This document shows, in pieces, positions 6,194 to 64,000 of a DNA stretch of 64,000 nt (its first letter is position 1; each line of letters begins with the position of its first letter). Origin of the DNA: Ignavibacteriota bacterium (GTDB taxonomy: Bacteria; Bacteroidota; Ignavibacteria; Palsa-1295); the NCBI GenBank assembly GCA_963736195.1, contig CAVTNP010000001.1, forward strand, positions 690,133 through 754,132, read 5' to 3'. The notes under the pieces are model-generated. The model was not told the DNA's origin and searched no databases. It saw nothing but the letters and a program-made list of their open reading frames with translations. The translations under genes and the position numbers were made by a program.

Positions 6194-6247
6194 CGTCCGC
6201 TCCTTTGATGAAGCATAGAAAACACTGTACCGCCCCGAAAGTTACAC

Positions 6248-29269: not shown

Positions 29270-30292
29270 CTACCATTGGAAACCAAGCGTGGCTTCCAAT
29301 CCAATCGAACCTAAAGGTGATGTGGCCGGTGAAAATAGCTGTTCCGCGCGAGCAGACATATCGAGCGTAAGTCCATTCGCAAATCGGTATTCAATACCGG
29401 CAGCTTCCGAGGAAAGGAATCCTACCGTGCTCGCACCTGCAACAATCTCCGCGCACGGAGATAACACATCATTCGGATTCAGGTCGAAGCGGTAGCCAAC
29501 ATCAAGCGAGTTTACTAATGATGTTGATGCCGACGCTGTTTGAGAAGGACTTCCAAGGGTAAGTTGTGTTGGCAATCCACCGACAGTAACCGTGGTATCG
29601 CGAGGCATGACAGATTGGGCGGCGTGATTCACGGTAAAAGAACTGCGCCGCAATTCCACAACGAACGAGGATGAGCCAAAAATGTGATACCGCACTCCCG
29701 CTGCGCCAAAGATAGAACTTGTGGAATAGCTATTGCCCGGGAGCAAAGCTCCACCAGCTACAAATGCACTCCAACGGTTAGCTGTCATCTCGTTCTGACC
29801 AGATACTTGGGTTAAAATTGTGGGATCAGAAGGAGCAGCAACGGGGGTCGCGATCGATTGTATATTCGATTGCGTCGAGGATTTTTTTCCCGATATATTC
29901 TGCGGAGCGGGAATCGTATTTTGTGTTTCACTAGAGTTATCTGTAACGCCAGTTTCTAAAGCTTCACCTTGCATTGCAGTGTTCTTTGCAGCGTTTGTTG
30001 CAACATTCACAGTTAAATGGGAAGGATCGGTCGCTTGGGATGCATCCGTCGCATACGACCCATGCAGGGCTTGCGTATTCGGCAACGATTCATTCACAAG
30101 GAAATGACTACCCATGAAAAGTCCAATACCTGCGAGCAATACCACACCGGCAGCATAATGAAAAAAGACTGCGAACGCCGATCTGCGGCGCGTATCGTGG
30201 TTCATCACAAGCGCGCGCATCTCGCCGAACGGGTAATAGGATGGCGTAGCATTTAGCGATCGGATGTAGGTTTGGTATGAGTCAGAGCGCAT
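29270..30292 (-). CDS. Anti-sigma-like single-pass membrane protein with S/T/Q-rich periplasmic linker and C-terminal outer-membrane beta-barrel domain
   Basis: It lies immediately downstream of the ECF sigma gene and overlaps it. The order is a short cytoplasmic N-terminus, a TM helix AFAVFFHYAAGVVLLAGIGLFMG, about 120 low-complexity residues, then about 175 aa of alternating amphipathic strands ending ...LGFQW. The track ORF start at 30394 overlaps the sigma gene by 112 nt, so 30292 (MRSDSYQ...) was chosen instead. Confidence 0.55.
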   Translation of the reverse strand: MRSDSYQTYIRSLNATPSYYPFGEMRALVMNHDTRRRSAFAVFFHYAAGVVLLAGIGLFMGSHFLVNESLPNTQALHGSYATDASQATDPSHLTVNVATNAAKNTAMQGEALETGVTDNSSETQNTIPAPQNISGKKSSTQSNIQSIATPVAAPSDPTILTQVSGQNEMTANRWSAFVAGGALLPGNSYSTSSIFGAAGVRYHIFGSSSFVVELRRSSFTVNHAAQSVMPRDTTVTVGGLPTQLTLGSPSQTASASTSLVNSLDVGYRFDLNPNDVLSPCAEIVAGASTVGFLSSEAAGIEYRFANGLTLDMSARAEQLFSPATSPLGSIGLEATLGFQW

Positions 30293-30875
30293 AATTTTCG
30301 ATTGCCTCCATGAGAATAACATTCTTCTCAGCATGTTGCCCGAGTTGATCTGAGTTCTTTTCTTTGTTACTAATTTCTTCGGGTTCGATCCCAAGCATTT
30401 TTTTCAGCATTTCGCGGCCGCGTCGTAATCTGCTTTTCACGCCGCTCAGTGTGCCACCTTGAATTGCACGAATTTCTTCGAGCGAAAGATCTGCAATATC
30501 GAATAGTAAAATGGTTTCCTTCATCTTTGCCGGCAGTCGGTCGACCACAGTCATTACTATTGCAATTTCCGCTGCGACATCCGGCATTGCGTTTAGATCG
30601 AGGATCGATTCCAGCGTGCTTGATTCAACAATCGTAAATCGTTGATCGCGGCGATGCCAGCGTTTGTACGTTCTTGCTACGATACGATAGAGAAATCCAG
30701 GGAACCCAGATTCATCGCGGTTAAAATCGAACCGTTCGAGCGCAACAAGAACTGCCTCGCTGACGAGATCTCTTGCCTGCTCCAGGTCGTGCGTCATGGC
30801 AAGCGCATATCGCAAAAGCCGAGGATAGACCGGCTCCAGCAGTGCAAGAAATCGTTCTTTGTGCGCGTTTTCCAT
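30282..30875 (-). CDS. ECF-subfamily RNA polymerase sigma-70 factor
   Basis: Sigma-70 region 2 (LVSEAVLVALERF...FLYRIVARTYKRWHRR) and region 4 (LSLEEIRAIQGGTLSGVKSRLRRGREMLKKML). It is a paralog of 44995-45633. Confidence 0.85.
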   Translation of the reverse strand: MENAHKERFLALLEPVYPRLLRYALAMTHDLEQARDLVSEAVLVALERFDFNRDESGFPGFLYRIVARTYKRWHRRDQRFTIVESSTLESILDLNAMPDVAAEIAIVMTVVDRLPAKMKETILLFDIADLSLEEIRAIQGGTLSGVKSRLRRGREMLKKMLGIEPEEISNKEKNSDQLGQHAEKNVILMEAIENYAL

Positions 30876-30882
30876 GAGTATT

Positions 30883-30912
30883 CCCCCTCCTAAAGAAGGA
30901 GGGGGCTTTTTT
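30883..30912. promoter_or_regulatory. GC hairpin CCCCCTCC-TAAAGAA-GGAGGGGG in the 35-nt gap between the upstream lipoprotein gene and the ECF sigma gene; on the mRNA strand it sequesters the Shine-Dalgarno GGAGG of the sigma gene
   Basis: Read on the minus strand: UAA-AAAAGCCCCCUCCUUCUUUAGGAGGGGGAAUACUC-AUG. The 3' stem half contains GGAGG, 7 nt before the ATG. A near-identical hairpin occurs at 33489-33516. Confidence 0.45.
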
Positions 30913-31891
30913 ATGGTACTACATATTTGATCCTCACAGCATTTGGCCCGAAGGGCGTGGTCAGGAAATGCTGATATTGCCCGCCGATCACCGGAAGCCC
31001 AGTCATATTCGAATGTCCGACGGCATAGACGTACACCGCCTGTCCCGCCGGCAGCGAATAGGGCATGAGCGTGGCAACGTCCATCGTGAGCGTATCCTTA
31101 AAATTCCCGCCGATCATTTTCGGCGATTGAAAGCCGGAATGATATGCGTCATTGGTTAACTCCGTTGCAAGCCATGCATCCTCCGTGCTATCTGGGGATT
31201 GCGCGCTTGGAGACGCGGGAAACAGCCCGCTATCGAGCGAAGTATAAACATAGATATTACCCGGCGCGAGCGTGCCCGTAACTTTCCCGCTCAGGATCAT
31301 TCCGTTGGAACTTCCAGCCGTATCGTAAATGACCACTTCAGAATCATGCGTGGTGACGGTCGTATCGAGTTTGCCGAGGCTATCTTTGATCGTACTGTCG
31401 ATGACAGTTATGATCTTCGTCTGGCTGACATTGAACACGTAGGATACGCCCGTCATGGTGATGGTATCGGTCGATTCCTGGACAAGGTAGGCATCATTGA
31501 TAATATCAGTTCCCACTCCAATGATATGATGCACCGGATAGATCATGGAATCGAATCCCGGCTTCCAGAAAATGATATTATACACTCCGGCGGGAATGTT
31601 ATCGATCTCGAAATGGCCGCCGGTATCTGCAGTTGCCTGATACGGCGTTCCCTGAATCGAGATTTGAATACCCGTTGGCGAAAGCCCCGTTGGCGCACCG
31701 GACGCATACGCCGCAACCGTTCCCTCCAGCTTTTCGCCGTTGCTGGTCGCCGCCGGAGGGTCAGAAGGGCTGGAGCAGCTTGAAAAAACCATTGCAAAAA
31801 TGGCGAAAAGGAGTCCGTATAGGCGGACTCCTTTATCGCTGTAGCGGCGCGGTTCCCGCGCCAGCCCCATGTTGCAAATTCCTGAGATCAT
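30911..31891 (-). CDS. Hypothetical lipoprotein with carboxypeptidase-regulatory-like (CarbopepD_reg) beta-sandwich domain
   Basis: Lipobox ...FAMVFSSCSS. GGHFEIDNIPAGVYNIIFWKPGF is the classic CarbopepD_reg motif. Confidence 0.55.
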   Translation of the reverse strand: MISGICNMGLAREPRRYSDKGVRLYGLLFAIFAMVFSSCSSPSDPPAATSNGEKLEGTVAAYASGAPTGLSPTGIQISIQGTPYQATADTGGHFEIDNIPAGVYNIIFWKPGFDSMIYPVHHIIGVGTDIINDAYLVQESTDTITMTGVSYVFNVSQTKIITVIDSTIKDSLGKLDTTVTTHDSEVVIYDTAGSSNGMILSGKVTGTLAPGNIYVYTSLDSGLFPASPSAQSPDSTEDAWLATELTNDAYHSGFQSPKMIGGNFKDTLTMDVATLMPYSLPAGQAVYVYAVGHSNMTGLPVIGGQYQHFLTTPFGPNAVRIKYVVP

Positions 31892-31936: not shown

Positions 31937-33316
31937 TCATTCCTTCACGATCTTCTTCGTTGTTACACTATTGCCAGAAGCAATTCGGATATAATACGTT
32001 CCGGGCGTGACATTCGAGAGATCGAGCGTAAGGTTCGTATTGCCTCGCGAATTCTCGGTTTTCACCGATTCGCCGAGCACATTCATCACCATTACATTCG
32101 AGCCCATCGGAATGTTTTGCAGTGTGACGACGCCATTCGTTGGATTGGGCGATAGTTCGATCTGAGAGACCGGCTCCGTTGGTGCGACCGATTCATTATC
32201 GTTGATGTGCATGATGGAGTTCGGTGGGGCTTGAGAATAATCGAAGGTGAGTGAATCACATTCAAACTCATTCTGTATCTCGCTTGGCTGATTCGGCTTC
32301 GGAGGCACGCTTGCACCTGCTGCATAGATGATAACATTGCCCCCATCGTCATAACCTTCCCCAGGCACACACGCGGCACCCGGCTTCAAGTAAATCAAGT
32401 CGCCCTCGCTCGCCACGACAGTAGCACCGGCCTCGGCGAAGAAAGTGTCTCTCGACTCGGACCACGCTGTCACCGTGACGCCAGGATTGACCCAATAGGT
32501 GCCAGGACTGTAGATCCTTCCATTCGAATCGAGACTATATATCGTAACACTCGAATCGAGCACGACCGCAGAGCGAGGAACCACCGGAGGAGAGCAATCG
32601 AACACATAAATTGTGTCGTACGCCATTCTCATACAACCGGTGGCAGTGTTGACTTCTCGGACGCTCACATACTTATAGCCTCCCGTCGAGTACGAAATGG
32701 GTGGCACAATGGTGTCCTCGTAGATGGTCACCGCATAAGCTCCCATCGCGGTAGCAGGCGTAGCATCTGCGCCAAAATCGCAAAAGACGCTGTCTATGGT
32801 CGGTGGCGGCGAGGGCATAAAATATATCCCACCCGAGAGTGGGGCACCCAAGAACGGAACCCCAATAAATCCAATATTAGCACGACCAAAGTTAAGGCGA
32901 AATCCAAATTCTGGCGCATTCGGATAATAACCAACAACGATATTACTTCCATTATCAGCACTTGTAATGTAAGGATTTGCACCTATTACACGGATGCGGT
33001 AATGTGCGGACCCTAATGCTGTTTTTGGAATAGCTGTCACAAGCGTAAACGTGCCCGGCAGAGAATCAATGAATGAGCCGATATTGCTGAAATCATTATT
33101 ATTGAAGCTTCCAGAAGTATCCAATAGTTGCACTGTAAAGGCATTTGCATGACCCCACGTCCCCGTTGCGGTAAATGTAACAGAGAATGGATCACCCAAG
33201 CAAAATGTGGTTCCGGATATTGAGTCTAACGTTATCGTTTGAGCGCAGGGAGCTCTTGGCTCTGCAAGCAGCACAACCGCGCAAAAGACCGCAAGAAAAG
33301 TACTGATTTTTTTCAT
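31937..33316 (-). CDS. Secreted protein of unknown function with T9SS C-terminal sorting domain (paralog family member 3)
   Basis: Signal peptide MKKISTFLAVFCAVVLLA. It shares the N-terminal QTITLDSISGTTFCLGD and CDSLTFDYSQ blocks with 4979-6193 and 6248-7444. C-terminal sorting tail ...GTYYIRIASGNSVTTKKIVKE. The track ORF extends to 33388. Confidence 0.7.
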   Translation of the reverse strand: MKKISTFLAVFCAVVLLAEPRAPCAQTITLDSISGTTFCLGDPFSVTFTATGTWGHANAFTVQLLDTSGSFNNNDFSNIGSFIDSLPGTFTLVTAIPKTALGSAHYRIRVIGANPYITSADNGSNIVVGYYPNAPEFGFRLNFGRANIGFIGVPFLGAPLSGGIYFMPSPPPTIDSVFCDFGADATPATAMGAYAVTIYEDTIVPPISYSTGGYKYVSVREVNTATGCMRMAYDTIYVFDCSPPVVPRSAVVLDSSVTIYSLDSNGRIYSPGTYWVNPGVTVTAWSESRDTFFAEAGATVVASEGDLIYLKPGAACVPGEGYDDGGNVIIYAAGASVPPKPNQPSEIQNEFECDSLTFDYSQAPPNSIMHINDNESVAPTEPVSQIELSPNPTNGVVTLQNIPMGSNVMVMNVLGESVKTENSRGNTNLTLDLSNVTPGTYYIRIASGNSVTTKKIVKE

Positions 33317-33666: not shown

Positions 33667-33766
33667 CAGCGCGTTTTAAATAGTGTAGAGACTTCTGACT
33701 TGATAAATGGGGCAAGCGAATATGGGCGCTTACCGCGGTGTTCAATCTCCCATAATACTCAAAATC

Positions 33767-35245
33767 ATGAAAATTCGTATCGCCGTCATTAGCTTAATAA
33801 TGTGTCTCGGAGCGAACCTACGTGCCCAGACCTGGCAATTTACCGGATCCCTGAATACGGAGCGCCGGTTGGAAACCATTAACGTGCTCCAAAATGGGAA
33901 AGTCCTCGTTACCGGCGGGGATGATATGGAGGGGAATGCGCTCGCCTCCTGCGAGATCTACGATCCGGCAACCGCCTCATGGAGCTACGCTGCATCGATG
34001 CAATTTCCAAGAGAGCGGCATACCTCCAACGAACTTTCGGATGGCCGAATCGTGATCATCGGGGGAAATACCAACAATATCAACGAATGGATTGCGACGC
34101 CAAGCATCGAAATTTACGATCCATCGACGGATACCTGGACACCCGGCGGCTCGATGTATGTTCCGCGCGAAAATCACACTTCTACCCTTATCAATGACAG
34201 CATGATTTTGATCAGCGGGGGACTTACCGGCCAAGAAGGAAACTGGCAGGTTCTTACTGAGTGTGAGATCTATAATGTAAATTCACTTCAGTGCACCGTT
34301 ACGGGGTCAATGTCCCAACTTCGGCATGACCATGCCGCTGCTTTACTCTCCGATGGGACGGTTCTTGTTGCTGGTGGACGAACCGGCGGCGCTGGAAGCG
34401 ACTATTTGGCAGAGTGCGAGATCTTCAATCCGTCTTCAGGAACCTGGGCGATTGCTCCACCGATGCCAGAGGCTCGCATTGCGCCGATCACCGCTGTCTT
34501 TTCCGATAACTCCGTTCTGATCGCGGGTGGACGTAAAGACGATAACGATGCCGCCGAGGCAGCGGACGTTTACAGTCCCGGCGCTCCAGCCTGGACGGCA
34601 GTCCAGAATATTTTGGTGCCCTCGACGTGGCAGGGAGGTACGGTATTACCGGGTGACCGTCTGCTCATGACCGGAGGTATCATCGGTGGCGATTGGTCCG
34701 ATCCATCTGGTCAGAGCCCAGTCAATACTCCTACCTGCGAGTGGTACGATAAGCCGAACCAGCAATGGTACTATGCTCCGACGATGAATGAGCCACGCGC
34801 AGAGCATGGAGCAGTTACCTTTACTCAAACTGTCAATTCGGGCCTGCCGACGCAACTGGTACTCGTCGTTGGCGGGATCATCGGTGTTGCAACTGTAACC
34901 AATACATGCGAAGTGCTCGATGTTGGTTCAGGCGCGATCGCAAACTACATTGCACATCAGGAGAGCATCGAGTCAGCGGTCGCTCCAGCAAATGCTCCGG
35001 CAAATATGCTAACTATTAGCTACACGAACAATGGACCGGCGCTCGATCTCGTGCTTGCTGCCAGCGAAAATGTGACAACTGAGCTCGTTTCGATCGATGG
35101 CCGAGTGGTCTTCAACATGGATGAGCAGCTTGCCGGTGGCGAACATGTTCTCAATCTTCCTTCCAGTTTGGCCTCCGGGATGTACCTGGTTCGCGTGAAC
35201 GCGGGCGGGAACGTAATGACTTCGAAGATACAGATCACCCAGTGA
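33767..35245 (+). CDS. Kelch-repeat beta-propeller protein with T9SS C-terminal sorting domain
   Basis: Signal peptide MKIRIAVISLIMCLGANLRAQ. There are about 6 Kelch-like repeats (VLVTGG..., IVIIGGN..., ILISGG..., VLVAGGR..., VLIAGGR..., LLMTGG...). C-terminal sorting tail ...GMYLVRVNAGGNVMTSKIQITQ. Confidence 0.75.
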   Translation: MKIRIAVISLIMCLGANLRAQTWQFTGSLNTERRLETINVLQNGKVLVTGGDDMEGNALASCEIYDPATASWSYAASMQFPRERHTSNELSDGRIVIIGGNTNNINEWIATPSIEIYDPSTDTWTPGGSMYVPRENHTSTLINDSMILISGGLTGQEGNWQVLTECEIYNVNSLQCTVTGSMSQLRHDHAAALLSDGTVLVAGGRTGGAGSDYLAECEIFNPSSGTWAIAPPMPEARIAPITAVFSDNSVLIAGGRKDDNDAAEAADVYSPGAPAWTAVQNILVPSTWQGGTVLPGDRLLMTGGIIGGDWSDPSGQSPVNTPTCEWYDKPNQQWYYAPTMNEPRAEHGAVTFTQTVNSGLPTQLVLVVGGIIGVATVTNTCEVLDVGSGAIANYIAHQESIESAVAPANAPANMLTISYTNNGPALDLVLAASENVTTELVSIDGRVVFNMDEQLAGGEHVLNLPSSLASGMYLVRVNAGGNVMTSKIQITQ

Positions 35246-44909: not shown

Positions 44910-44994
44910 CCCCATGCGACTTTTCTCCACCTCATGTCTCTTCTCTCCAAATCCGAAGAATGGTGACCGGTCATCCTTGTCGGACTAACACAGC

Positions 44995-45633
44995 ATGACA
45001 CTACAGGCAGCGAGCATTTCGGCTCGCGGTAACGAGAAACACACGCGATTCATGGCCCTTCTGGAGCCGTGCCTTGCGAAGCTTTCCCGTTATTGCCATG
45101 CGATGACAAAGGATGTGGAATCGGGACGCGATCTGCTATCGGATGCGATCCTGCTCAGCTACGAGAACTTCGAAAGACTTCGAGCACCCGAAGCCTTTAC
45201 GAGCTATATCTTCACAACGGCGCGGCGGTTATTTTACCGGCGCGAACGGAGAAAAAAGTTCTGGGGTGTGCTCGGAAGCGAAGCGGAAACACTCGTGGAT
45301 GAGCGGGAACCCACGCCCGAAATGCGACTCGATCTCGAAGCGCTCGATCGCGCACTAACGCATTTACCCGAAAAACAACGCGAAGCCGTGATACTCTTCG
45401 AAATATCCGGACTCTCGCTTGCGGAAATTCGGGAAGTGCAAGGCGGATCGCTTTCGGGTGTGAAATCGCGCATCGTGAGAGGCCGCGAGAAGCTTGCGGT
45501 CCTGCTCGGTGAGCGGGAGTCTGAACAGCCGGGGACGACAGTTCGACAGCAGGCGCGGACGCCTGCTCCACGCGAGCACTCAACATCCTTTGAACGCGCA
45601 CAGGTCGCTACTCTAATAAGGGAGAAACTATGA
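44995..45633 (+). CDS. ECF-subfamily RNA polymerase sigma-70 factor (paralog of 30282-30875)
   Basis: Region 2 (LLSDAILLSYENF...YIFTTARRLFYRRERR) and region 4 (LSLAEIREVQGGSLSGVKSRIVRGREKL). It shares the unusual QGGxLSGVKSR block with the other ECF sigma. Confidence 0.85.
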   Translation: MTLQAASISARGNEKHTRFMALLEPCLAKLSRYCHAMTKDVESGRDLLSDAILLSYENFERLRAPEAFTSYIFTTARRLFYRRERRKKFWGVLGSEAETLVDEREPTPEMRLDLEALDRALTHLPEKQREAVILFEISGLSLAEIREVQGGSLSGVKSRIVRGREKLAVLLGERESEQPGTTVRQQARTPAPREHSTSFERAQVATLIREKL

Positions 45634-47978
45634 AGAACAAACCGCTTCAACCATCCGAGAAATTAGCGAAGCACTTCGCGGCATACCGCGAGGAAGCGCC
45701 GCTGATCTCTGCTCCCGAAGTCGAGAATCTCCTTGCCGGTAGTGCCACTGCTGACCACCCACGCAACGCATTTTCTTTCAGGAGAATTTTTATGACACTC
45801 AGCGGACTCGCCGGACTTGCGGCTATCAGCTACTTCGCATTCTTTAGTTCATCAAATGGGACCAATGGGACTACTACTATCAATGGGTCCCAAATGACCC
45901 ATCCGTCCCATAACACCCCGAATACTACGAAACTTTCGCAGCTTGCAACGCCAGCAAGCACGACCACGAAGCCCACCCCACAACTTCACATAAACGACAA
46001 CCCCCACGGCCCATGGAGCGCCGGCAACGACCAGTTCTACGCCGATCTCTCGCAGAAAGAATTAGCAAAGCTGGGAATTGTGGTTCATGGTGACTCCATA
46101 TTGACCTATAAACTCAATGATAAGGATAGTGTCGTATGGACGCAATTTTCTGAATATTCGGTTCCGGGTATAAAGTACAAAGGTCATTCCATTGGCGGTG
46201 GGGGGAAGTTGGCCTCTGCGCCGCAGGGCGTGGAAGCTCACCGCTTTTATCCGATTCTCATGACCTACTCGAACGGCAATGGCGCAGCCTATCGCATCGA
46301 GGAAGGTGACCAAAGTGAGTGTGGAATGATCGGGCCGGAAGATCTGAATAAAGCATTCCGTGCATGGCTCGAAACTCCTGGAACTCCCGGGCTGCGGACA
46401 CTGGGATTTACCTCCTCATCCACAATGTCGTCGCCGTGCAAAAACTGTCCTCCCATCGAAAGCGACACTATTAAGATCACGGTCGGAAAAGATCTGGCGC
46501 CTTCTCCATTCCCATTAATTGCACCAAAAATCGATAGTCTCTCCGGCGATCTTCAGGGTGCATTATTGCAGCTCGCTCATTATTATGAAGGCAGCATAGC
46601 TATACAACCTTCGGTTACGTGGCCCAAAAATCTAACTATAAAAGTGGATACGTTTACCGCTCGGAACTTGCTCGATCAAATGGACGCCGAGGAGAATGGT
46701 GGAGTAGAACAGCATTTGCGTTCGATCATGGCTCGCTTGAACGAACTCATTCCCGTCATTGTGCGGCCGCACGGCGGTTCCGGCGCACCCGATTCGAACG
46801 ACTACATCTTCTGGTATGAACCAAGCGATGAGCTGTTCGATGCGTTGCCCTCGGCGCAAGCATCAATCATTCGAGCAAAGTTGAATACGCCACCGCATTG
46901 CCTATCCATGCCGAACGATGTGCTGAAGTCAGCGGAGATAACCTATTGTGTTGCCGAAACCCAAGAGGTACAAGTGAGGGTGCAAGATTTAACGGGCAAA
47001 CAACTTATTGGTATGTCGCAACTTGCATCTACTGGAGATAATATCCTGCAATTCACAACAGAGACACTTCCATCGGGCATGTACATCGTCACCGTGCAAG
47101 ATCATGACGGCACGGAACGCTCGCAAAGGCTGTGGGTCGAGAACGCACATCCGAAATCCTATAAAGACGCGATTTGGGATAAGAATGCACCGCACGCACC
47201 CAACCAAATGTGGTTTGTGAATACCGACGATCCAACTCCTGTGAATGATCTGCCCGTGGAGCATTCGACTTCACTTCTCATTCCGAGTTTGTCGTTGGAT
47301 TCGGCGGCTCTTTCCGGGATCGGAGTACAAAGCAATAGTGTACTATCCGCGTATTACACTCAAGGCTCTCAACCAAATGCAGTTAACTACATGGGTATTG
47401 TGAGAAGTTGGGGAGCAGTTATTCAGACCCTTGCAAAGAGTTCGGTGACTGGTGTCACTGTCCCTATATTCGAACCGTCATTAGTGACAGATGGAATCGG
47501 TCGTAAGCGAGTATTCGCGGGTGATTCCAATTATAGCGAACTTGTTCCAATTCTTCTTCGCGCTGGAACTCCAAGTGATACCATCGGAGCTACGGATCTT
47601 ATTTTCTGGTACAAGCCAACGCCAGAATTTCTTGCAGATCTATCGGATTCTGCCCGAGCCATAGCACAGAGTCTCGCCAGTGTCAATGGTGGAACTAACA
47701 CAACCAAGGTACATGGTTCGATCCAGCAGGCCGCGGTATTCCCAAATCCATCGAAAGGGAACTTGTCCGTGCAGCTAACGCTGGGCGGTGCGCGCACCCT
47801 TACGTTCACGCTTCGGAATTTATTAGGCCAGCAAGCGGCGCCATCGGTTCAAGCGCGGATGGATGGCACGGGCGAGCAGTCGCTTGATTTCAGCACGGTT
47901 CCGGAAGGCGTGTATCTCCTCGATATTTCCTCCGATCAGGGCGAGCGGTATATCGAGCGGGTGGTGATTGCACATTAA
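45630..47978 (+). CDS. Anti-sigma-like single-pass membrane protein with large extracytoplasmic domain and T9SS C-terminal sorting domain
   Basis: Its start overlaps the sigma stop (ATGA). There is a cytoplasmic segment of about 50 aa, then a TM helix IFMTLSGLAGLAAISYFAFF, then about 700 aa ending in a Por-type tail ...VFPNPSKGNLSVQLTL...GVYLLDISSDQGERYIERVVIAH. It is paralogous to 62712->64000. Confidence 0.6.
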   Translation: MKNKPLQPSEKLAKHFAAYREEAPLISAPEVENLLAGSATADHPRNAFSFRRIFMTLSGLAGLAAISYFAFFSSSNGTNGTTTINGSQMTHPSHNTPNTTKLSQLATPASTTTKPTPQLHINDNPHGPWSAGNDQFYADLSQKELAKLGIVVHGDSILTYKLNDKDSVVWTQFSEYSVPGIKYKGHSIGGGGKLASAPQGVEAHRFYPILMTYSNGNGAAYRIEEGDQSECGMIGPEDLNKAFRAWLETPGTPGLRTLGFTSSSTMSSPCKNCPPIESDTIKITVGKDLAPSPFPLIAPKIDSLSGDLQGALLQLAHYYEGSIAIQPSVTWPKNLTIKVDTFTARNLLDQMDAEENGGVEQHLRSIMARLNELIPVIVRPHGGSGAPDSNDYIFWYEPSDELFDALPSAQASIIRAKLNTPPHCLSMPNDVLKSAEITYCVAETQEVQVRVQDLTGKQLIGMSQLASTGDNILQFTTETLPSGMYIVTVQDHDGTERSQRLWVENAHPKSYKDAIWDKNAPHAPNQMWFVNTDDPTPVNDLPVEHSTSLLIPSLSLDSAALSGIGVQSNSVLSAYYTQGSQPNAVNYMGIVRSWGAVIQTLAKSSVTGVTVPIFEPSLVTDGIGRKRVFAGDSNYSELVPILLRAGTPSDTIGATDLIFWYKPTPEFLADLSDSARAIAQSLASVNGGTNTTKVHGSIQQAAVFPNPSKGNLSVQLTLGGARTLTFTLRNLLGQQAAPSVQARMDGTGEQSLDFSTVPEGVYLLDISSDQGERYIERVVIAH

Positions 47979-48201: not shown

Positions 48202-48561
48202 TTATCGAGCCATCGGCGCGCGGCCACCATAGGCTGCGCGGCCGCCGCGACCTGGCGCTGCCCAATGTCCGGCAACGAAGCCGTAACGTCCGCCTCTGTG
48301 TGGGTAACGTGGTGCTACCCAAACAAATCCGGGGTGTGGTGGGCGGTCCCAACGGCCTGGCACCCATACATAAGCCTGCGTGGCATAGTCCCAGCGATGG
48401 AATCCGGGTATCCATACGGCTTCTGGATATGGCGCAGCTACAACCACCTCGTGCCGAGGCGGCGGCGGGCCGATACGAATGTCGAAACTGACTTGTGCGA
48501 ACGACGGTACCGCAAGCGCCAAGAGGCAACTGATACCGATCGCTTTTATGAGATTATTCAT
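48202..48561 (-). CDS. Small secreted protein with W-x-P-G-x-W type tryptophan/proline/glycine repeats
   Basis: Signal peptide MNNLIKAIGISCLLALAVPSFAQ. Repeats WIPGFHRWDY / WVPGRWDRPP / WVAPRYPHRGG / VAGHWAAPGRGG. The track start at 48636 is probably too early. Confidence 0.55.
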   Translation of the reverse strand: MNNLIKAIGISCLLALAVPSFAQVSFDIRIGPPPPRHEVVVAAPYPEAVWIPGFHRWDYATQAYVWVPGRWDRPPHPGFVWVAPRYPHRGGRYGFVAGHWAAPGRGGRAAYGGRAPMAR

Positions 48562-48784
48562 GTGGTGTCTCCTTTTAATTTGTTGTTTAATCTTTAGACG
48601 CCTTTTCATACGCACTTCGTTTAATGCGTGATACACAGATTCGCAATTTTTATGATTAATTGTTCTTCAGAAAACGGTGGGTCTTGAGCAAAAAATGATT
48701 TTTCGCGGCCGCTAATTAAAGTTCATAGAATTTGGTTTACCTACATTCTATATTCCGTGGCCTGCATTGTCAGGCTAACGGGAG

Positions 48785-52640: not shown

Positions 52641-53693
52641 TTAGGAAGGCTCCGTTCCGGATCGTGGATGTGCCTGATCATAGACGGATTTCATGCGTTC
52701 GACGGTCAAATGCGTGTAGCGTTGGGTGGTCCGGAGGGATTCGTGGCCTAAAATCTCCTTCACAGCCCGCAGATCGGCACCGTGATCGAGCAAGTGGGTA
52801 GCCGTTGTGTGACGAAGCATGTGCGGATGAGCGTGCGGCATGTCCGGCTCATGCGCAAATGCCTTGGAGACAATATCATAGACCATGCGCGGGGTGAGGC
52901 GATTGCCGTTCTTGAGCAGAAAGAGTGCTTGGGTATCTCCCGAACCACCCCCCAACCCCCGCCTTGGAAAGGCGGGGGAGCTTAATGAAGAGTTCTTTCT
53001 TTCTTTCAGATATTCTTTGATCGCCTCGACCGCTTTTGCGCCGATGGGTACGATGCGCTGCTTCGATCCTTTGCCCAGCACGCGAACAGTGTTCGCTTTA
53101 AGATCGAGTTCGCTGAGATCGATCGAGCATAGTTCCGAGCGGCGAAGTCCGCTGGAATAGAGTAGTTCCAGCACTGCCCGATCGCGCGCTTCTTCCATGC
53201 TTCCCCTCTTCTTTAGGGAGGGGGTTGGGCCGGCACTATTCCCAGCCAGCACATTGGCCATGGCGCGTTCGCTTACGACATTCGGCAAATTCTTTTCTGC
53301 CTTGGGTGTTTTCAGCAAACGAGCAGCATTGAACTCAAAAATTCCCTGCTTCACTAAAAATTTGACGAAAGACCGCACCGCAGCAAGCTTACGCCCGATA
53401 GAGCTTGCCTTCAGAGTTTTTACATTGCCTACGGTCATTCTCACTTCTCCTCTCCCTTTGGGAGAGCCTGGGTGAGGGATCGTTTGTTCTGAAAGCGTGT
53501 GGACATAACGGCGAAGAGCATACAGGTCATCATGCGTGCCGGATAGTACCATCCGTTCGGACTTTAGGATGCGGTAGAGATCGACAAGGTCGCCTTCGTA
53601 GGCTTCGATCGTTTTAGGGCTGGCCTCGCGCTCGTGTTCGAGGTATTCCAGGAAACTGCGAAGCCATCGGGGAAAATCGGTGTAGAAATCCAT
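52641..53693 (-). CDS. xerD: Tyrosine site-specific recombinase XerD/XerC, carrying two short in-frame GC-hairpin insertions
   Basis: Catalytic blocks ARDRAVLELLYSSGLRRSEL, HMLRHTTATHLLDHGADLRAVKEILGHESLRTTQRYTH (R..HxxR..Y). At 350 aa it is about 50 aa longer than canonical XerD because of two inserts (GPTPSLKKRG and SLSSPAFPRRGLGGGSG). Confidence 0.85.
   Translation of the reverse strand: MDFYTDFPRWLRSFLEYLEHEREASPKTIEAYEGDLVDLYRILKSERMVLSGTHDDLYALRRYVHTLSEQTIPHPGSPKGRGEVRMTVGNVKTLKASSIGRKLAAVRSFVKFLVKQGIFEFNAARLLKTPKAEKNLPNVVSERAMANVLAGNSAGPTPSLKKRGSMEEARDRAVLELLYSSGLRRSELCSIDLSELDLKANTVRVLGKGSKQRIVPIGAKAVEAIKEYLKERKNSSLSSPAFPRRGLGGGSGDTQALFLLKNGNRLTPRMVYDIVSKAFAHEPDMPHAHPHMLRHTTATHLLDHGADLRAVKEILGHESLRTTQRYTHLTVERMKSVYDQAHPRSGTEPS
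52946..52978. repeat. GC hairpin element (CCCCCAACCCCCGCCttggaaaGGCGGGGGAG) inserted in-frame inside xerD
   Basis: An 8-bp perfect GC stem within the coding sequence. It encodes the extra peptide ...SSPAFPRRGLGGGSG... that is absent from canonical XerD. It shares the GGGGGTTGGGG tail with intergenic hairpins. Confidence 0.6.
53203..53233. repeat. GC hairpin element (CCCCTCttctttagGGAGGGGGTTGGGCCGG) inserted in-frame inside xerD
   Basis: Its stem and loop are almost identical to the intergenic hairpins at 30883 and 33489. It encodes the extra peptide ...GPTPSLKKRG... Confidence 0.6.
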
Positions 53694-56378: not shown

Positions 56379-58505
56379 TCACCGCATCAGCACCACCGGC
56401 AGCGTTTGCACGGTGGATGAGCGATCATCCACCTGCCCATTCATCCGAACGAGGCATTCATACACCCCATCGGGCAATCCGGTAGGATTGCCCCATATAA
56501 AGTTATGCTCTCCCGCACCCAACTCACCCGAAAACAGCCGCGCAACCTCCACGCCAAGCATATTCACAATGGATACCTCCGCATATCCAGCAGCTTGAGA
56601 TGTGAAGGTGATCTGGGTAGATTGAGAGAAGGGATTTGGGTAGATTTGAATTGACGGTTCGGTTACTGTTGAGGTTTGCGCTACGGAACTAATACCGAAA
56701 TCGGAAAGTGGAATGTCCCAAACACTGTATCCATTAGTGCCTGCAAAAAGATTCGTTCCGTTGGCAACAAGGCATGTGATGCCGTAAAAGGGAATCAGCC
56801 CAGTGTTCTTTGACTCCCATGTCGTTCCATTATCAATAGAGAAATAAACGCCACTCTTATCATCACTCACGAATAAATTCGAACCACTGGCGGTAAAAGA
56901 TGATATTCCATTACCAGGAAGGCCCGCAAATGCTTCTTTCCAACTATTGCCGCTATCAGTGGAACGATAAATGCTATCATTATAACTTACAGCAAAGAGA
57001 CTCGTCCCATTGGCAAAAAGATAATAGAAATAGCTCATTGGTGTTGCCAAACTCGTCCAGGTAGCACCAAGGTCTGTGGAGCGCAAAACCACCCCGGTTG
57101 GAAACTCATCAGGACCCTCGGCAGCAGCAAACAGAGTCGTTCCGATGGCTGCAAACAAAGACGCTCCCCCATACCCTCCGACACCCAAATTTTTTTCATT
57201 TTCGACTGTCTGAGCAATCCAGTTCGAACCGCTGTCCGAGGAATAATAGAAAACGCTATCGTTCGCAGCAAAAAGATTCGTTCCGCTTACGGTGAGTATT
57301 GTTGTAGGCTCGGTATCGATGAGAATCCAGCTTTTGCCGTTGTCCCTTGATCTAAATATTCCGCCTGGAGGGATGCCATAGGGACCATTCGCAACTGCAA
57401 AAAGAGTTGTTCCCATAACGGCCAGATCATCGACATAATATCCAGAGAGTCCAGCGGTTGACCAGCTTGTTCCATTGTCGGTTGATAGAAAGAGGCCATT
57501 GGAGGCGTTCTCGGCAGCAAAAAGATTCGTGCCCACGGTTGCGAGCACGGCAATATCAGCGTCGGTGATTCCATCCGTAGCAGCAGTCCAAGTCTCCCCG
57601 CTATCGCTTGAACGGAACACCTGATCCTCAAAAGATCCGGCAAAAAGAGTCGATCCAACTGCCTCAAGAGGGCCAAAGCCGATCACATTACTTATTCCAT
57701 CGCTGGATGAATCCCAGCTTGCCCCTCTATTTCTAGAATGCCAGAGCCTCCAAGAATCTGACACATAAATGTTCGAGTCGTCAATAATTAGAGAGGATAT
57801 ATCTGCATTCGAGAACCCATTTGTATCCGGCAACCAACTTGCCCCGCTATCTGTGGAACTCCAGACCCCCGCGCCGTGGGTACCCCCAAACAGCGTCGTC
57901 CCCATAACTGCGAGTGGAGCGAACAGGACTTGTGAGACACCTGCACTCGTCCAAGTTATTCCATCGTCTATTGATTCAACAAACCCGCCTTCGTACATCC
58001 CAACGTACACGCTTGCAAAAAGGGATGAACCGATGGAGGCAAACGAAGCGGCATTGATCCCAATAGTCGTCCAATTTTTCCCGTTGTCTGTAGAACGAAA
58101 AGTACCGCCATCTGTCGCTGCAAAGAGCGTGGTTCCATTGGAGAAGAGTGTGGAAACTAAGTACGAAGTTAAACCTGAGCCATGCCAAGTATTGCCGTTA
58201 TCAGATGTGAGATATACGCCGCTATCGGTACCTGCAAAAATATTCGTGCCCACAATCGCAAAGGTTTGAACGGCACCATTCGTGAGACCTGTGCTTGAAG
58301 GAGTCCAGCTTGCGCCATTATCTGTAGAACGAAAAATTCCATCTCCCCAGGTTCCGGCAAACAAGCTTCCGTTTTGAAATGTAAACGCTTGAACCGTCCC
58401 TCCCCATGGTCCATTCGTTTGCACCCACTGTGCGTGCAGCATACACGGCGGCATCACCGCGAGCGTGGCGAAGAGAGTGAGTGCGAGAAGCCGTTTCGGG
58501 AACAT
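56379..58505 (-). CDS. Secreted beta-propeller protein with about 14 BNR/Asp-box-like (SxDxGxTW) repeats and T9SS C-terminal sorting domain
   Basis: Signal peptide MFPKRLLALTLFATLAVMPPCMLHAQ. Repeated STDNGASWT / SDNGNTWH / STDSGASW ... motifs. C-terminal Por tail ...IQIYPNPFSQSTQITF...GVYECLV... Confidence 0.75.
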   Translation of the reverse strand: MFPKRLLALTLFATLAVMPPCMLHAQWVQTNGPWGGTVQAFTFQNGSLFAGTWGDGIFRSTDNGASWTPSSTGLTNGAVQTFAIVGTNIFAGTDSGVYLTSDNGNTWHGSGLTSYLVSTLFSNGTTLFAATDGGTFRSTDNGKNWTTIGINAASFASIGSSLFASVYVGMYEGGFVESIDDGITWTSAGVSQVLFAPLAVMGTTLFGGTHGAGVWSSTDSGASWLPDTNGFSNADISSLIIDDSNIYVSDSWRLWHSRNRGASWDSSSDGISNVIGFGPLEAVGSTLFAGSFEDQVFRSSDSGETWTAATDGITDADIAVLATVGTNLFAAENASNGLFLSTDNGTSWSTAGLSGYYVDDLAVMGTTLFAVANGPYGIPPGGIFRSRDNGKSWILIDTEPTTILTVSGTNLFAANDSVFYYSSDSGSNWIAQTVENEKNLGVGGYGGASLFAAIGTTLFAAAEGPDEFPTGVVLRSTDLGATWTSLATPMSYFYYLFANGTSLFAVSYNDSIYRSTDSGNSWKEAFAGLPGNGISSFTASGSNLFVSDDKSGVYFSIDNGTTWESKNTGLIPFYGITCLVANGTNLFAGTNGYSVWDIPLSDFGISSVAQTSTVTEPSIQIYPNPFSQSTQITFTSQAAGYAEVSIVNMLGVEVARLFSGELGAGEHNFIWGNPTGLPDGVYECLVRMNGQVDDRSSTVQTLPVVLMR

Positions 58506-58738: not shown

Positions 58739-58940
58739 ATCCCCCATACCATCCGGTGTAGCTTCCCCTATCATGGTTGGATTTATCTTCATTCACCAAG
58801 TCTTCATTGGTGAAACAAGAAATTGCCCGTTACGTTAGAAAACTTCACCTTATATGGAGCGCGCCTTTACGCAGCCTTATGGCGTATCTGGGGGCTCCAG
58901 GTTAGCCACTCATTCACCAAATTTTTATCAGGAGTCAAAT

Positions 58941-60554
58941 ATGTTAAAGAAACGACCATTAGTAGCAGCCATCTTTTTGGTGGTGCTCGGTTTGGTATTC
59001 GGAGCGACTTTAGTGACTGGCTTTGGCAGTTGGAAAGGCATGAACCTTGCTTTTGGCGCCAATCAGCCTGAGCTTGGCGGTCCGATGCCGGATCTTCCGA
59101 ACGACCAGGCGCTCGCCAGCATGAACGGATCGTTCGTAGCTATCGCAAAGGCGGTTCAGCCGACGATCGTCCAGATCAATGTGAAGACCGAAGCGCCAAA
59201 GCTCACCAAGAACGAGCAAAATAACGACAACAACCCGTTCAAGCACTTTTTCAACTTCGGCAACGGCGATGATGGCAATGGTGGTGGTGGCGATATGCCG
59301 TTCTTCCAATTCCCACCTCAGCAGCGCGGCCCGGAAGAGGGGATCGGCTCTGGAGTGATCATCACGAGCGATGGATATATCCTTACCAATAACCACGTGG
59401 TAAAGGATGCTGCCAAGAAGGGCGGTATCACCGTTCAAATGACCGACAAACGAGTTTTCGATGCACATGTTGTTGGCACCGACCCAACCACCGATCTTGC
59501 GGTAATTAAAGTGGATGCATCTAATCTGCCTGTTGCGGCGCTTGGCAATTCTGACGATCTTGCCGTCGGGCAGGTAGTATTGGCTGTTGGAAATCCTCTG
59601 GGCCTTGAATCGACAGTTACCGAGGGTATTGTTTCATCGCTTGGCCGTCCTTTGGATATTCCAGATGAAAAAGGCACGCACAATGGTTATAGTATCGCGA
59701 ATTTTATTCAGACGGATGCCGCGATCAATCCAGGGAACTCTGGCGGTGGGCTGTTCAATATCAAGGGCGAAGTCATTGGAATCAATTCCGCCATTGAATC
59801 GACGACCGGCATGTTCGCCGGATATGGATTTGCTATTCCGATCAATATGGCAAAAGTGGTTGCGACGGATCTTATCAAGTCCGGCAAAGTGAACCGTGGC
59901 TACATCGGAGTCAATATTGGAACCGTCGATCAAACGACTGCCCAGGCGCTAGGTCTTGACAAACCGCGCGGCGTGCTCATCGATCATGTCGTGAAAGATG
60001 GCGCCGGTGAAGCAGCCGGACTCAAGGAGCACGACGTCATCCTTTCGGTCAATGGCACGGAGACGAACGAGCGCAATCAATTGCAAGCTCTGATCGGCAT
60101 GCACCGCGCCGGCGATCACGTTACACTTCATATCTGGCGCGATGGAAAAGAAATGGATAAGACCGTTACGCTCAAGCCGCGCGAAGAGATAGCTGATAAG
60201 GATTCCGACGAAAATGGCGATGAGTCGCAAGGCGATGCACAGGAAGAGTCGGCGAAATCAACTGCTACGCTCGATAATATTGGGCTCGCAGTCCGCACCG
60301 TGACTGCCGATGATAAGGATAAATATCACGTCACGAACGGAGTACTTATCACAAGCGTGGCTCCGGCATCCGAGGCAATGGATCGCGGCTTGGGACGCAA
60401 TGCAGTCATCACGGAAGCGGCGCACCAAAAGGTAACCGATGCCGGGAAGTTCGAGAAGATCATCAAAGATAACGCAGGCAAAGCCGTCGGCTTGAACGTC
60501 GTTGATGATAAAGGGGACTCGCACTTCTTCGCGATCAAGGTTCCAAGCGAGTGA
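58941..60554 (+). CDS. htrA: Periplasmic serine endoprotease DegP/HtrA (trypsin-like domain plus two PDZ domains)
   Basis: Catalytic triad blocks TNNHVV, DLAVIKV and GNSGGGLFN. SD AGGAGT 7 nt before the ATG at 58941. Confidence 0.9.
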   Translation: MLKKRPLVAAIFLVVLGLVFGATLVTGFGSWKGMNLAFGANQPELGGPMPDLPNDQALASMNGSFVAIAKAVQPTIVQINVKTEAPKLTKNEQNNDNNPFKHFFNFGNGDDGNGGGGDMPFFQFPPQQRGPEEGIGSGVIITSDGYILTNNHVVKDAAKKGGITVQMTDKRVFDAHVVGTDPTTDLAVIKVDASNLPVAALGNSDDLAVGQVVLAVGNPLGLESTVTEGIVSSLGRPLDIPDEKGTHNGYSIANFIQTDAAINPGNSGGGLFNIKGEVIGINSAIESTTGMFAGYGFAIPINMAKVVATDLIKSGKVNRGYIGVNIGTVDQTTAQALGLDKPRGVLIDHVVKDGAGEAAGLKEHDVILSVNGTETNERNQLQALIGMHRAGDHVTLHIWRDGKEMDKTVTLKPREEIADKDSDENGDESQGDAQEESAKSTATLDNIGLAVRTVTADDKDKYHVTNGVLITSVAPASEAMDRGLGRNAVITEAAHQKVTDAGKFEKIIKDNAGKAVGLNVVDDKGDSHFFAIKVPSE

Positions 60555-62711: not shown

Positions 62712-64000
62712 TTATTTCGTTACCACGACCCGCTCCACATCGCGCTCACCGTTGTCAGTGGTGGTGACGAGGAGATAGACGCCTGCCGGTAACTGCGAGA
62801 GATCGAGCTGTGCATCTCCAGTGGTGGACGAAGTCACCCCGCCATTCAGCACTTCCTGGCCAAGAAGGTTACGCACGCTGAAGTAGGCACGCGGTGCGTC
62901 CGAAAGCTGATAGTGAACCGTTGCCGGGCCGATCGTTGGATTCGGATAGACCGAGATCGCAAGCTGCTTCGATTGCGGCGCTGGAGTTGAATTAACTGCC
63001 GCAGGCATCGCCGCCGTTAGCTCCGGCGATGGTTCATACCAGAAGATGAGTTCGTTCGGATGCTCCGCATTCTTTAGGTTGACGACGCGGATGGGGATGA
63101 GGTGATTGAGATTTAACGGATCGCTTACAAACGAACCATAGACGGAATCAATATCAGGCATCCGTAAATCAAAATTTTCTACATTCGGAATTGAATCGAT
63201 TGGCTTTTTCATTGCAATCATCTTTTTGATAGCAAAATGCGAAATCGAATCGACAAATTTTTTGCTAAATGCTTCGTCAAGACTGTCCGTAACAAACACT
63301 CGCGTTTCCGTTGATACCCTTGTATGGCTTCCTGGAGTTTGAGAAATGGTATTTCGGATGCTCTGAGTAAAATCATTTTTGACATTGGCGCGGACAGTTA
63401 TCGGATTTCCATTGATCGTCGTATCAACGATCTTTTGGAGCATCGAATCGTCATCAAACACAGGGAGAATATCCATTTTCCCACTTTCATTTACAAAATT
63501 TTTGATGATTTCAGTTTGCGGTTTGCTATGAGATGAGTCCGCAAATTCTAAGAAAAACATTCTTTTCGCACCACTTGCTGTGGTAATCAGCTTTGGTGGA
63601 GGAAGAATATTAACGTTCGGCTCTTTTTGATGTGAGGTCGAGAAGTGCATTCGAACTGCACCAGTTGGAAGAAGGGAAAAATGATTGTAATAATCATCTT
63701 TCGTTCCAACTCCCTCGTAAAAATCAATATCCCCGTTATCTTCAAGCACAATGCCGAGCTTGGCAAGCTGGTCGGGCGAAAGCTCGACGGGTTGCAGGCT
63801 GTCGGCAGTTGCAATGGGGGTTTCGGGAATTTTTACGCTAGCTAAGGTGGCCTCGTTTAATGGGCATACGACAAATGAGGGTTTATTTCTTGGCGGTGTT
63901 GCAAAATGTTGCGTACCCCCCTCCGTCCTCTCTGACCCATAGTTCGTATGGGACAATACGGGTTCTTTTGTGATTGCGGTTGTGCTTGGCTGGGGTGTTT
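62712..64000 (-). CDS. Partial CDS (N-terminus beyond window end): secreted protein with T9SS C-terminal sorting domain, paralog of the anti-sigma-like protein at 45630-47978
   Basis: Shares ELSPDQLAKLGIV, LIFWYEPSPELTAAMP and the C-terminal Por tail with 45630-47978. The reading frame stays open to the window edge. Confidence 0.65.
   Translation of the reverse strand, partial: TPQPSTTAITKEPVLSHTNYGSERTEGGTQHFATPPRNKPSFVVCPLNEATLASVKIPETPIATADSLQPVELSPDQLAKLGIVLEDNGDIDFYEGVGTKDDYYNHFSLLPTGAVRMHFSTSHQKEPNVNILPPPKLITTASGAKRMFFLEFADSSHSKPQTEIIKNFVNESGKMDILPVFDDDSMLQKIVDTTINGNPITVRANVKNDFTQSIRNTISQTPGSHTRVSTETRVFVTDSLDEAFSKKFVDSISHFAIKKMIAMKKPIDSIPNVENFDLRMPDIDSVYGSFVSDPLNLNHLIPIRVVNLKNAEHPNELIFWYEPSPELTAAMPAAVNSTPAPQSKQLAISVYPNPTIGPATVHYQLSDAPRAYFSVRNLLGQEVLNGGVTSSTTGDAQLDLSQLPAGVYLLVTTTDNGERDVERVVVTK

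Follow-up and report, generated by a model that had tools for sequence, protein, structure and literature searches.

How might a protein that carries a sorting signal for type IX secretion (T9SS stands for the system) come to be encoded in one operon with a sigma factor? The question is raised by two genes at positions 44995 to 47978 of a 64,000-nucleotide stretch of DNA from an Ignavibacteriota bacterium (GenBank assembly GCA_963736195.1, contig CAVTNP010000001.1, positions 690,133 to 754,132 of the forward strand), which was analyzed as a whole and is referred to here as the window. The first gene encodes an extracytoplasmic function (ECF) sigma factor, and the second encodes a 782-amino-acid protein, the partner, that ends in a T9SS C-terminal sorting domain (CTD). 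We propose that the partner is a membrane-anchored anti-sigma factor that bridges the cell envelope via its CTD and frees the sigma factor when events at that end start its proteolysis, and we give this whole chain a probability of about one-half.

The sigma factor and partner genes form a conserved, translationally coupled operon

The sigma factor gene (44995 to 45633, plus strand) encodes a 212-amino-acid protein that matched Sigma70_r2 (PF04542, 28.7 bits; cutoff, 24), Sigma70_r4_2 (PF08281, 50 bits; cutoff, 25.7), and TIGR02937 (57 bits; cutoff, 42.9). The protein is an ECF (group 4) sigma-70 factor that has sigma2 and sigma4 domains only. Among the NCBIfam models it reached no specific subfamily or equivalog cutoff, the match being to the superfamily alone. 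It ends in a conserved C-terminal tail of ~40 amino acids.

The partner gene (45630 to 47978, plus strand) starts within the end of the sigma factor gene, such that the stop codon of one and the start codon of the other share the four bases ATGA. Both this overlap and the 782-residue length of the partner agreed exactly with a preliminary description of the locus made from the sequence. The last codons of the sigma factor gene (REKL) contain GGGAG, which resembles a Shine-Dalgarno sequence and would serve the partner gene. The whole junction, GGGAGAAAnTATGAAG, which comprises the Shine-Dalgarno-like sequence and the ATGA overlap, was conserved across loci. At positions 45622 to 45633, the sequence AGGGAGAAAxTATGA encodes the conserved sigma factor end R-E-K-L/I; these residues may be conserved for the sake of the partner gene, whose ribosome-binding site and start lie here, rather than for sigma factor function. 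Since the Shine-Dalgarno sequence is embedded there, it accounts for part of the conservation of the sigma factor tail.

The preliminary description had allowed that the linkage of the two genes might be coincidental, an interpretation that did not survive comparison with other genomes. Besides the window, the sigma factor gene abutted or overlapped the partner gene at about a dozen further distinct loci. In family 1, which comprises the partner and its orthologs, an ECF sigma factor gene ended four bases into the partner gene at loci that share the same synteny (L001, L003/L004, and L005/L006) and at one that lies in another neighborhood (L002). GTDB species representatives contributed 10 loci, and at all 8 of those with upstream DNA a sigma factor open reading frame (ORF) ended at or just before the partner start; the GTDB and metagenome loci partly overlap, hence the total of about a dozen. 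The same linkage was found in the family of a paralogous partner (L007 and L008), in the family of a partner with a putative beta-barrel end (L009), and at a chimeric locus (L020). Since the homologous loci with upstream DNA were all sigma linked, the linkage is not coincidental, and the sigma factor and partner genes constitute a conserved, translationally coupled operon.

When partner residues 1 to 420 were compared by HMMER with the full set of 1.84 billion cluster representatives, only 34 relatives were returned. Their named sources were Candidatus Kapabacteria/Kapaibacterium, Ignavibacteriota, and metagenome-assembled genomes (MAGs) of unclassified Bacteroidetes. The partner family is therefore clade specific, being restricted to Kapabacteria-like MAGs, and uncultured.

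Conserved elements precede the sigma factor gene

Upstream of the sigma factor gene lies a promoter-like motif, GCGACTTT-N10-ATGTCT (44916 to 44939, plus strand), which was found as an exact match at all six of the family 1 loci that were fetched (L001 to L006), including L002 in its different neighborhood. These six represent four distinct loci, as L004 repeats L003 and L006 repeats L005. ECF promoters have an AAC-like -35 element and a GTC-like -10 element; because the motif resembles them, autoregulation is likely, and the motif is a candidate for an autoregulated ECF-type promoter. The 5' leader of the sigma factor gene (44940 to 44994) contains a conserved block, TCCAAATCCGAA, followed by a perfect palindrome, TGACCGGTCA (44964 to 44973, plus strand). 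The core of the palindrome, GACCGGTC, was invariant over five aligned loci, and all ten bases were nearly so, with one end base differing in L003. The palindrome occurred once in the window (0.08 occurrences were expected by chance) and may serve as an operator or form an RNA hairpin.

The partner ends in a T9SS sorting domain and contains an internal duplication

The only domain type recognized in the partner was Por_Secre_tail, and the same was true of the 21 family members searched against Pfam and NCBIfam. The sorting tail claimed in the preliminary description is real: residues 703 to 780 (47736 to 47969, plus strand) form a type A T9SS CTD that lies above both curated cutoffs (PF18962, 62.9 bits versus 27; TIGR04183, 57.6 bits versus 23). 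The best structural matches of this domain were solved CTDs, on which it superposed, rather than generic immunoglobulin (Ig) folds. The C terminus of the partner is a CTD in both fold and sequence.

The remainder of the protein, all of it encoded on the plus strand, is built from several conserved parts. Residues 1 to 52 (45630 to 45785) form a conserved N-terminal segment, supported by alignment and codon signature, that we propose binds the sigma factor. An alignment of 21 homologs yielded the N-terminal consensus SExLAKHFAPYREEAPLxSxPEIEKLL, which was followed by a variable spacer, a conserved hydrophobic segment that opens with an invariant Met-Thr, and finally a linker that is again variable. 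This N terminus was carried by 20 of the 21 homologs; the remaining one, P0008, was called from the invariant Met55. In the partner, the Met-Thr pair is Met55-Thr56 (45792 to 45797), and the segment of the paralog family likewise starts with Met-Thr (MTAMTT). The single hydrophobic segment (residues 53 to 72; 45786 to 45845) is a predicted N-in signal anchor based on hydropathy and Lys/Arg bias. It precedes a low-complexity linker rich in Thr, Ser, Asn, and Pro (residues 73 to 126; 45846 to 46007), which its composition and AlphaFold2 (AF2) per-residue confidence (pLDDT) values below 50 mark as a disordered tether.

Folded modules follow the linker. The AF2 model of the partner had a mean pLDDT of 68, with confident folds from residue 130 onward. 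Module 1 (residues 127 to 420; 46008 to 46889), delimited by alignment, is mixed alpha/beta (pLDDT, ~75 to 85), starts with LSxxELAKLGIVV, and ends with LVPVIVR...DYIFWYEPSxELF. Module 2 (residues 550 to 690; 47277 to 47699), identified as an internal repeat and in the AF2 model, is a shorter copy that ends with LVPILLR...DLIFWYKPTPEF. In the alignment, each of the two modules has an LSxxELAKLGI-type start, a LVPVIVR...D-x-IFWYEPSxEL end, and then a beta-sandwich. Structure comparison of the AF2 model revealed no specific fold match for the modules, and searches of Pfam, NCBIfam, and PDB sequences gave no match for the ectodomain or the N terminus.

The two module ends of the partner are related (BLASTP E value, 5e-10), which constitutes an internal duplication. 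Between the modules, at residues 421 to 505 (46890 to 47144), lies an internal beta-sandwich with two invariant cysteines (C424 and C440) that coincides with a weaker, second Por_Secre_tail stretch at about residues 417 to 499. Orthologs were found with one module (480 to 510 amino acids, e.g., P0026), two modules (about 750 to 850 amino acids), and three modules (P0019, 1,096 amino acids). Since one-module orthologs such as P0026 have the first beta-sandwich as their terminal CTD (TIGR04183, 32 bits), the internal sandwich of the 782-residue partner is a former CTD. The preliminary description lacked this internal duplication, the first copy of which ends in the former CTD.

A very large protein of 2,175 amino acids from the HMMER scan, P0088, contained 41 repeated stretches that matched module 1 residues 211 to 246, which suggests that part of module 1 is a widely reused repeat unit.

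The hydrophobic segment is a predicted uncleaved anchor

The preliminary description had proposed a cytoplasmic N terminus of ~50 residues and a single transmembrane (TM) helix. Consistent with this layout, the partner had one hydrophobic peak, at residues 53 to 71/72 (19-residue Kyte-Doolittle average, 1.76), with three Lys/Arg residues in the preceding 15 residues and none after it. Across the three families, 52 members were compared. In each of them the hydrophobic window started at residues 42 to 77 (Kyte-Doolittle value, 1.58 to 2.14), with more Lys/Arg before the segment than after it, and no A-x-A or other small-x-small cleavage motif was conserved after the segment in these members. 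These features point away from the ordinary cleaved signal peptide that the preliminary description had considered as a counterexplanation. In family 2, the family of the paralog, Phe-Trp-Pro (FWP) directly follows the hydrophobic segment.

Over the first 36 codons of the partner gene, the differences among loci numbered about 12, 3, and 12 at codon positions 1, 2, and 3, respectively. Because the differences concentrate at positions 1 and 3, this N-terminal segment is translated. The other CTD proteins of the window begin differently: the ORFs at 4979 to 6193, 6248 to 7444, 31937 to 33316, and 56379 to 58505 start with signal peptides of 20 to 26 residues, each charged at its beginning and terminating in A-Q or G-Q. 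The ORFs at 24281 to 27391 and 33707 to 35245 likewise carry CTDs and have signal peptides in this length range, and the conserved N-terminal extension of 50 to 75 residues was absent from all six of these proteins. Since the sigma-linked proteins have no short signal peptide, unlike the cargo proteins of the window, they represent a distinct class of CTD proteins. Comparison across families thus supports reading the hydrophobic segment as an uncleaved N-in anchor rather than an ordinary signal peptide, with a predicted single-pass topology that would leave the N terminus in the cytoplasm.

Two other interpretations of this region were rejected. Met55 was considered as the true start of the partner; the 36 codons upstream of it show a coding signature, a signal starting there would have no charged n-region, unlike those of the window cargo proteins, and the conserved ATGA/Shine-Dalgarno junction at Met1 makes an internal start unlikely. 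A lipobox at TAAC in family 2 was discarded because the cysteine is not conserved.

Paralogous sigma factor/partner pairs in the window

A paralogous partner was claimed to lie at 62712 to 64000, running off the window. It exists, and its full-length form (P0035, 511 amino acids) has the same layout of N terminus, TM segment, linker, one module, and CTD; only its direction had to be corrected, since it lies on the minus strand, with its C-terminal 428 residues inside the window. Two orthologs of the paralog are preceded by an ECF sigma factor gene with a 4-bp overlap, namely, P0040 (L007), downstream of which lie the thymidylate kinase gene tmk and a pirin gene as in the window, and the more distant P0070 (L008). 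From the syntenic ortholog in L007, we infer that an ECF sigma factor gene also lies upstream of the window paralog.

The sigma factors of the three window-type pairs are themselves paralogs (36 to 45% identical) that share the motif LSGVKSR, and the longer QGGxLSGVKSR motif reported previously was present in both sigma factors of the window. Homology also extends to the N-terminal segments of these two CTD families (hhalign P value, 2e-4; 31 columns; 39% identity with the TM segment excluded). A chimeric partner, P0017 (L020:3279-6541), which was observed on two contigs from different samples, joins a family 2 N terminus and linker to a two-module family 1 ectodomain. The sigma factor encoded upstream of P0017 was 83% identical to the family 2 sigma factor and 43% identical to the window sigma factor. 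The type of sigma factor therefore tracks the N terminus and not the ectodomain, as a sigma-binding domain would predict, and this comparison supports the N terminus as the putative sigma-specific element of the partner.

The third pair lies at 29270 to 30875 on the minus strand. It consists of an ECF sigma factor of the same paralogous group (30282 to 30875; 36% identical to the first by sequence comparison) and a partner (29270 to 30292) with a conserved N terminus, a TM segment, a linker, and an all-beta C terminus that is also sigma linked in L009. The preliminary description had called this partner a beta-barrel fusion. The protein and its sigma linkage are as described, but the AF2 model was too poor (pLDDT, 37) to prove the barrel itself; OMP_b-brl models matched 6 of 11 homologs (best E value, 7.5e-5). 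The Thr/Ser-rich tether of these proteins spans 105 to 121 residues, and their C termini read GFQW or GFEW. Since hhalign gave no significant match between the barrel-partner N terminus and those of the two CTD families (P value, about 0.2), homology of this N terminus is unproven. In its layout, the pair fits the Dma kind of envelope-spanning anti-sigma factor. It adjoins genes for a CarboxypepD_reg-like protein (30911 to 31891) and the CTD protein at 31937 to 33316, an order that is also seen in L009.

Comparison with known regulators

The Dma family of Bacteroidota, published in 2024, comprises envelope-spanning anti-sigma factors (PMC10927553). By definition, a Dma protein starts with a region that binds the sigma factor, continues through a TM helix and a long disordered tether, and finishes in an outer membrane beta-barrel; its sigma factor belongs to the ECF21 group (PMC13088901). 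The full-length form of Dma1 carries both termini and spans two membranes; the protein is proteolytically processed, and its C-terminal fragments occur in outer membrane vesicles (PMC10927553, PMC13088901). Like Dma genes, the 782-residue partner gene lies directly 3' of an ECF sigma factor gene in a Bacteroidota-related lineage, and both the partner and its paralog have a short N-terminal region, one predicted TM segment, and a putative disordered tether. In contrast with Dma, they end in a CTD beta-sandwich rather than an 8-stranded OMP_b-brl_2-type barrel, and the CTD implies delivery by the T9SS rather than by BAM. The suggestion that such a mechanism had not been described thus holds only in part: the envelope-spanning principle is already known from Dma (PMC10927553), and what appears to be new here is a T9SS CTD in place of the outer membrane barrel. 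Our literature search yielded no description of an architecture combining an anti-sigma factor with Por_Secre_tail, T9SS, or CTD features, and none of the papers citing Dma that were examined contained a T9SS-tail variant.

In Porphyromonas gingivalis, the CTD of the CTD protein PorA (PGN_0123) binds PorV, and PorA provides input to the PorXY-SigP pathway, which controls T9SS genes (PMC7712824). PorA and, in our reading, the partner are alike in that a CTD-bearing protein has a regulatory rather than an effector role and governs how much of an ECF sigma factor is present or active. PorA, however, stands apart as a surface protein of its own, has a normal signal peptide, and acts via the PorY kinase and PorX; it is neither fused to an anti-sigma-like N terminus nor encoded next to sigP.

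The partner gene also shares features with more classical systems. With respect to operon order, a predicted N-in single-pass topology, and a short helical segment of CnrY-like size, the partner resembles the anti-sigma factors RseA and CnrY, but it has no match to a known anti-sigma domain and has a very large extracytoplasmic part that carries a secretion signal. RseA is a single-pass anti-sigma factor of sigmaE that is released by regulated intramembrane proteolysis, and CnrY, the counterpart of CnrH, is of the minimal two-helix class II type. As in ordinary type A cargo, the partner CTD exceeds the cutoffs of both PF18962 and TIGR04183 and can be superposed on solved CTD structures; unlike such cargo, the protein begins with a conserved segment of 50 to 75 residues and an anchor of 19 to 20 residues and is always sigma coupled. 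The concept of a biogenesis substrate that reports on its own pathway is known from the enterobacterial proteins RcsF (BAM) and NlpE (Lol), which are pathway substrates that report on envelope biogenesis. These proteins are unrelated to the partner, use other signaling modules, and do not hold the regulator-binding domain in the same polypeptide.

PorX genes next to the operon

A gene matching the equivalog model of PorX, the response regulator of the T9SS (NF052313, 689 bits; cutoff, 300), lies directly downstream of the sigma factor/partner operon, in convergent orientation, in four or five lineages. With the PorA precedent, this adjacency speaks for a link between the operon and the T9SS. 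The copies, all on the minus strand and all matching NF052313, are L003:5725-7332, L005:7375-8961, L011:6273-7853, L014:5345-6920, and L019:6381-7961, and the loci with adjacent porX fall into the groups L003/L004, L005/L006/L019, L011, and L014. No porX gene occupied this place in the window or in L001/L012, L002, L010, L015, L016, or L018.

A putative envelope-spanning anti-sigma factor and its alternatives

The three paralogous pairs, the translational coupling, and the N terminus and TM segment encoded directly downstream of the sigma factor together constitute the classic signature of a cognate anti-sigma factor. The proposed mechanism starts from the operon coupling and the domain layout, both of which are plain from the data: the two genes would be cotranscribed from the conserved, probably autoregulated promoter, with translation coupled through the Shine-Dalgarno sequence and the ATGA overlap. 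The first ~50 residues of the partner, forming two short helices, would then hold the sigma factor at the inner membrane, and residues 53 to 72 would serve as the uncleaved N-in anchor, two steps that are supported by comparison of homologous sequences. For the subsequent steps, we infer that the tether of ~55 residues rich in Thr, Ser, Asn, and Pro would lie outside the cytoplasm together with the folded modules, such that the terminal CTD could dock to the T9SS at the outer membrane. Cutting of the tether would be set by the fate of the docked end, i.e., pulling during translocation, sortase cleavage that takes off the CTD, or periplasmic degradation when secretion fails; intramembrane proteolysis would follow and release the sigma factor. 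The regulation of the T9SS is poorly understood, and an anti-sigma-like module and a T9SS tag in one chain would, if this reading is true, tie secretion directly and physically to transcription. Such a protein would also add another targeting route, besides barrel insertion, to the Dma principle, which suggests a modular design that predates Bacteroides.

Several observations weigh against this mechanism. Searches of the 21 family members with Pfam and NCBIfam recognized no anti-sigma domain (zf-HC2/RsrA-like, RskA, FecR, and similar). The AF2 model gave residues 1 to 126 low confidence, with the two short helices at residues 9 to 17 and 28 to 40, and did not render the TM segment as a helix. 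The linker of the family (47 to 63 residues, ~55 in the partner) is half as long as that of the Dma-like partner (55 versus 113 residues); we estimate that 55 residues span up to about 19 nm when fully extended. The promoter-like motif had a single site in the window at 0 mismatches, and without a second site there no regulon can be defined. The window contains no porX gene, nor is porX adjacent to the operon in the window lineage. The internal former CTD shows that this fold can persist without acting as a signal, and the chimera pattern could equally result if the sigma factor gene and the partner gene's 5' end simply stayed physically linked during recombination. An inner-membrane-anchored T9SS substrate is, moreover, a topological puzzle: we know of no T9SS substrate with this topology, and an inner-membrane-anchored polypeptide cannot be fully released by the T9SS.

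A more specific reading, which we offer only tentatively, is that the partner is a T9SS sentinel substrate fused to an anti-sigma domain, with the sigma factor freed either by pulling or sortase processing or by failed secretion and degradation. If this were true, transcription would read out T9SS throughput directly, and roles that are split between PorA and PorXY-SigP in Porphyromonas would be combined in one protein. Together with the Dma-like neighbor, it would also imply that the BAM and T9SS delivery routes are each monitored by dedicated sigma/anti-sigma sentinels.

The same puzzle of topology, the retention of the former CTD (residues 421 to 505) in a nonterminal, nonsignal position, and the lack of any T9SS component in the window would all suit a conventional single-pass anti-sigma factor that senses a periplasmic ligand or stress and ends in an Ig-like sandwich descended from a CTD that never engages the T9SS. 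We regard this explanation as unlikely, given that the terminal domain clears the curated CTD cutoffs by a wide margin and has solved CTDs as its best structural matches, that the CTD stays at the extreme C terminus in two paralogous families through one, two, and three modules, that porX adjacency recurs, and that a sister system ends in a putative outer membrane barrel, such that outer membrane targeting looks like a shared theme. Less probable again is that the partner is T9SS cargo of the ordinary kind whose cleavable signal happens to be unusually long, in which case the sigma factor would drive expression of the cargo and the released peptide would be at most a transient sigma titrator. 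The ectodomain is indeed large and modular like those of surface proteins, there is an invariant Met55 where the hydrophobic segment starts, and some members have small residues after the segment that would suit signal peptidase (FFS-ASH and FFSSS-N); these candidate cleavage motifs are not conserved, however, and family 2 has a proline directly after the segment. None of the window's six other CTD proteins has the conserved, translated extension, and the same N-terminal plan precedes the putative beta-barrel in the Dma-like relative; for Dma1, experiments have shown the full-length form that spans both membranes (PMC10927553).

The idea that we find hardest to sustain is that the partner is no inhibitor at all but a cotranscribed target or positive factor, with the true anti-sigma factor encoded elsewhere or absent. 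Some ECF groups are regulated through C-terminal extensions, and the sigma factor here has a conserved C-terminal tail of its own, in addition to the lack of a recognized anti-sigma domain in the partner. Part of that tail conservation is explained by the embedded Shine-Dalgarno sequence, and the translational coupling, the conserved N terminus and TM segment right downstream, and the recurrence of the arrangement in three paralogous pairs argue for an inhibitor. For experiments on the proposed envelope-spanning anti-sigma factor, ready material exists in the conserved promoter motif and in the partner versions that occur naturally, be they chimeric or built from one, two, or three modules.

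Neighboring genes

The window is dense in T9SS cargo, with at least 8 CTD-bearing ORFs, and otherwise has a housekeeping character (NADH dehydrogenase, RecA, and RecX). These ORFs and the PorX equivalog of close relatives are indirect evidence for a T9SS in this organism. Six Por_Secre_tail ORFs occur in addition to the sigma-linked partners: a tandem pair at 4979 to 7444 (minus strand) and single ORFs at 24281 to 27391 (plus), 31937 to 33316 (minus), 33707 to 35245 (plus), and 56379 to 58505 (minus). Their products include the tandem paralogs, a 1,036-residue multi-Ig protein, a Kelch propeller, and a BNR/sortilin-like propeller.

About 2 kb from the paralogous partner, an ORF at 58854 to 60554 (plus strand) encodes what by eye appears to be an HtrA/DegP-like serine protease with PDZ-type C-terminal regions, a candidate for a periplasmic protease that might cleave the tether. 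Between the two CTD-type sigma factor/partner loci lies a gene for a tyrosine recombinase (52641 to 53693, minus strand; Phage_integrase plus a SAM-like N-terminal domain). Downstream of the operon, a convergent gene encodes a small secreted protein (48202 to 48636, minus strand; L001:6705-7067 and L002:6464-6844, also minus) with a signal peptide ending in FAQ, a mature part of ~120 residues with YxWVPGRW-type repeats, and no Pfam match; it is conserved even in L002, despite the different upstream neighborhood of that locus.

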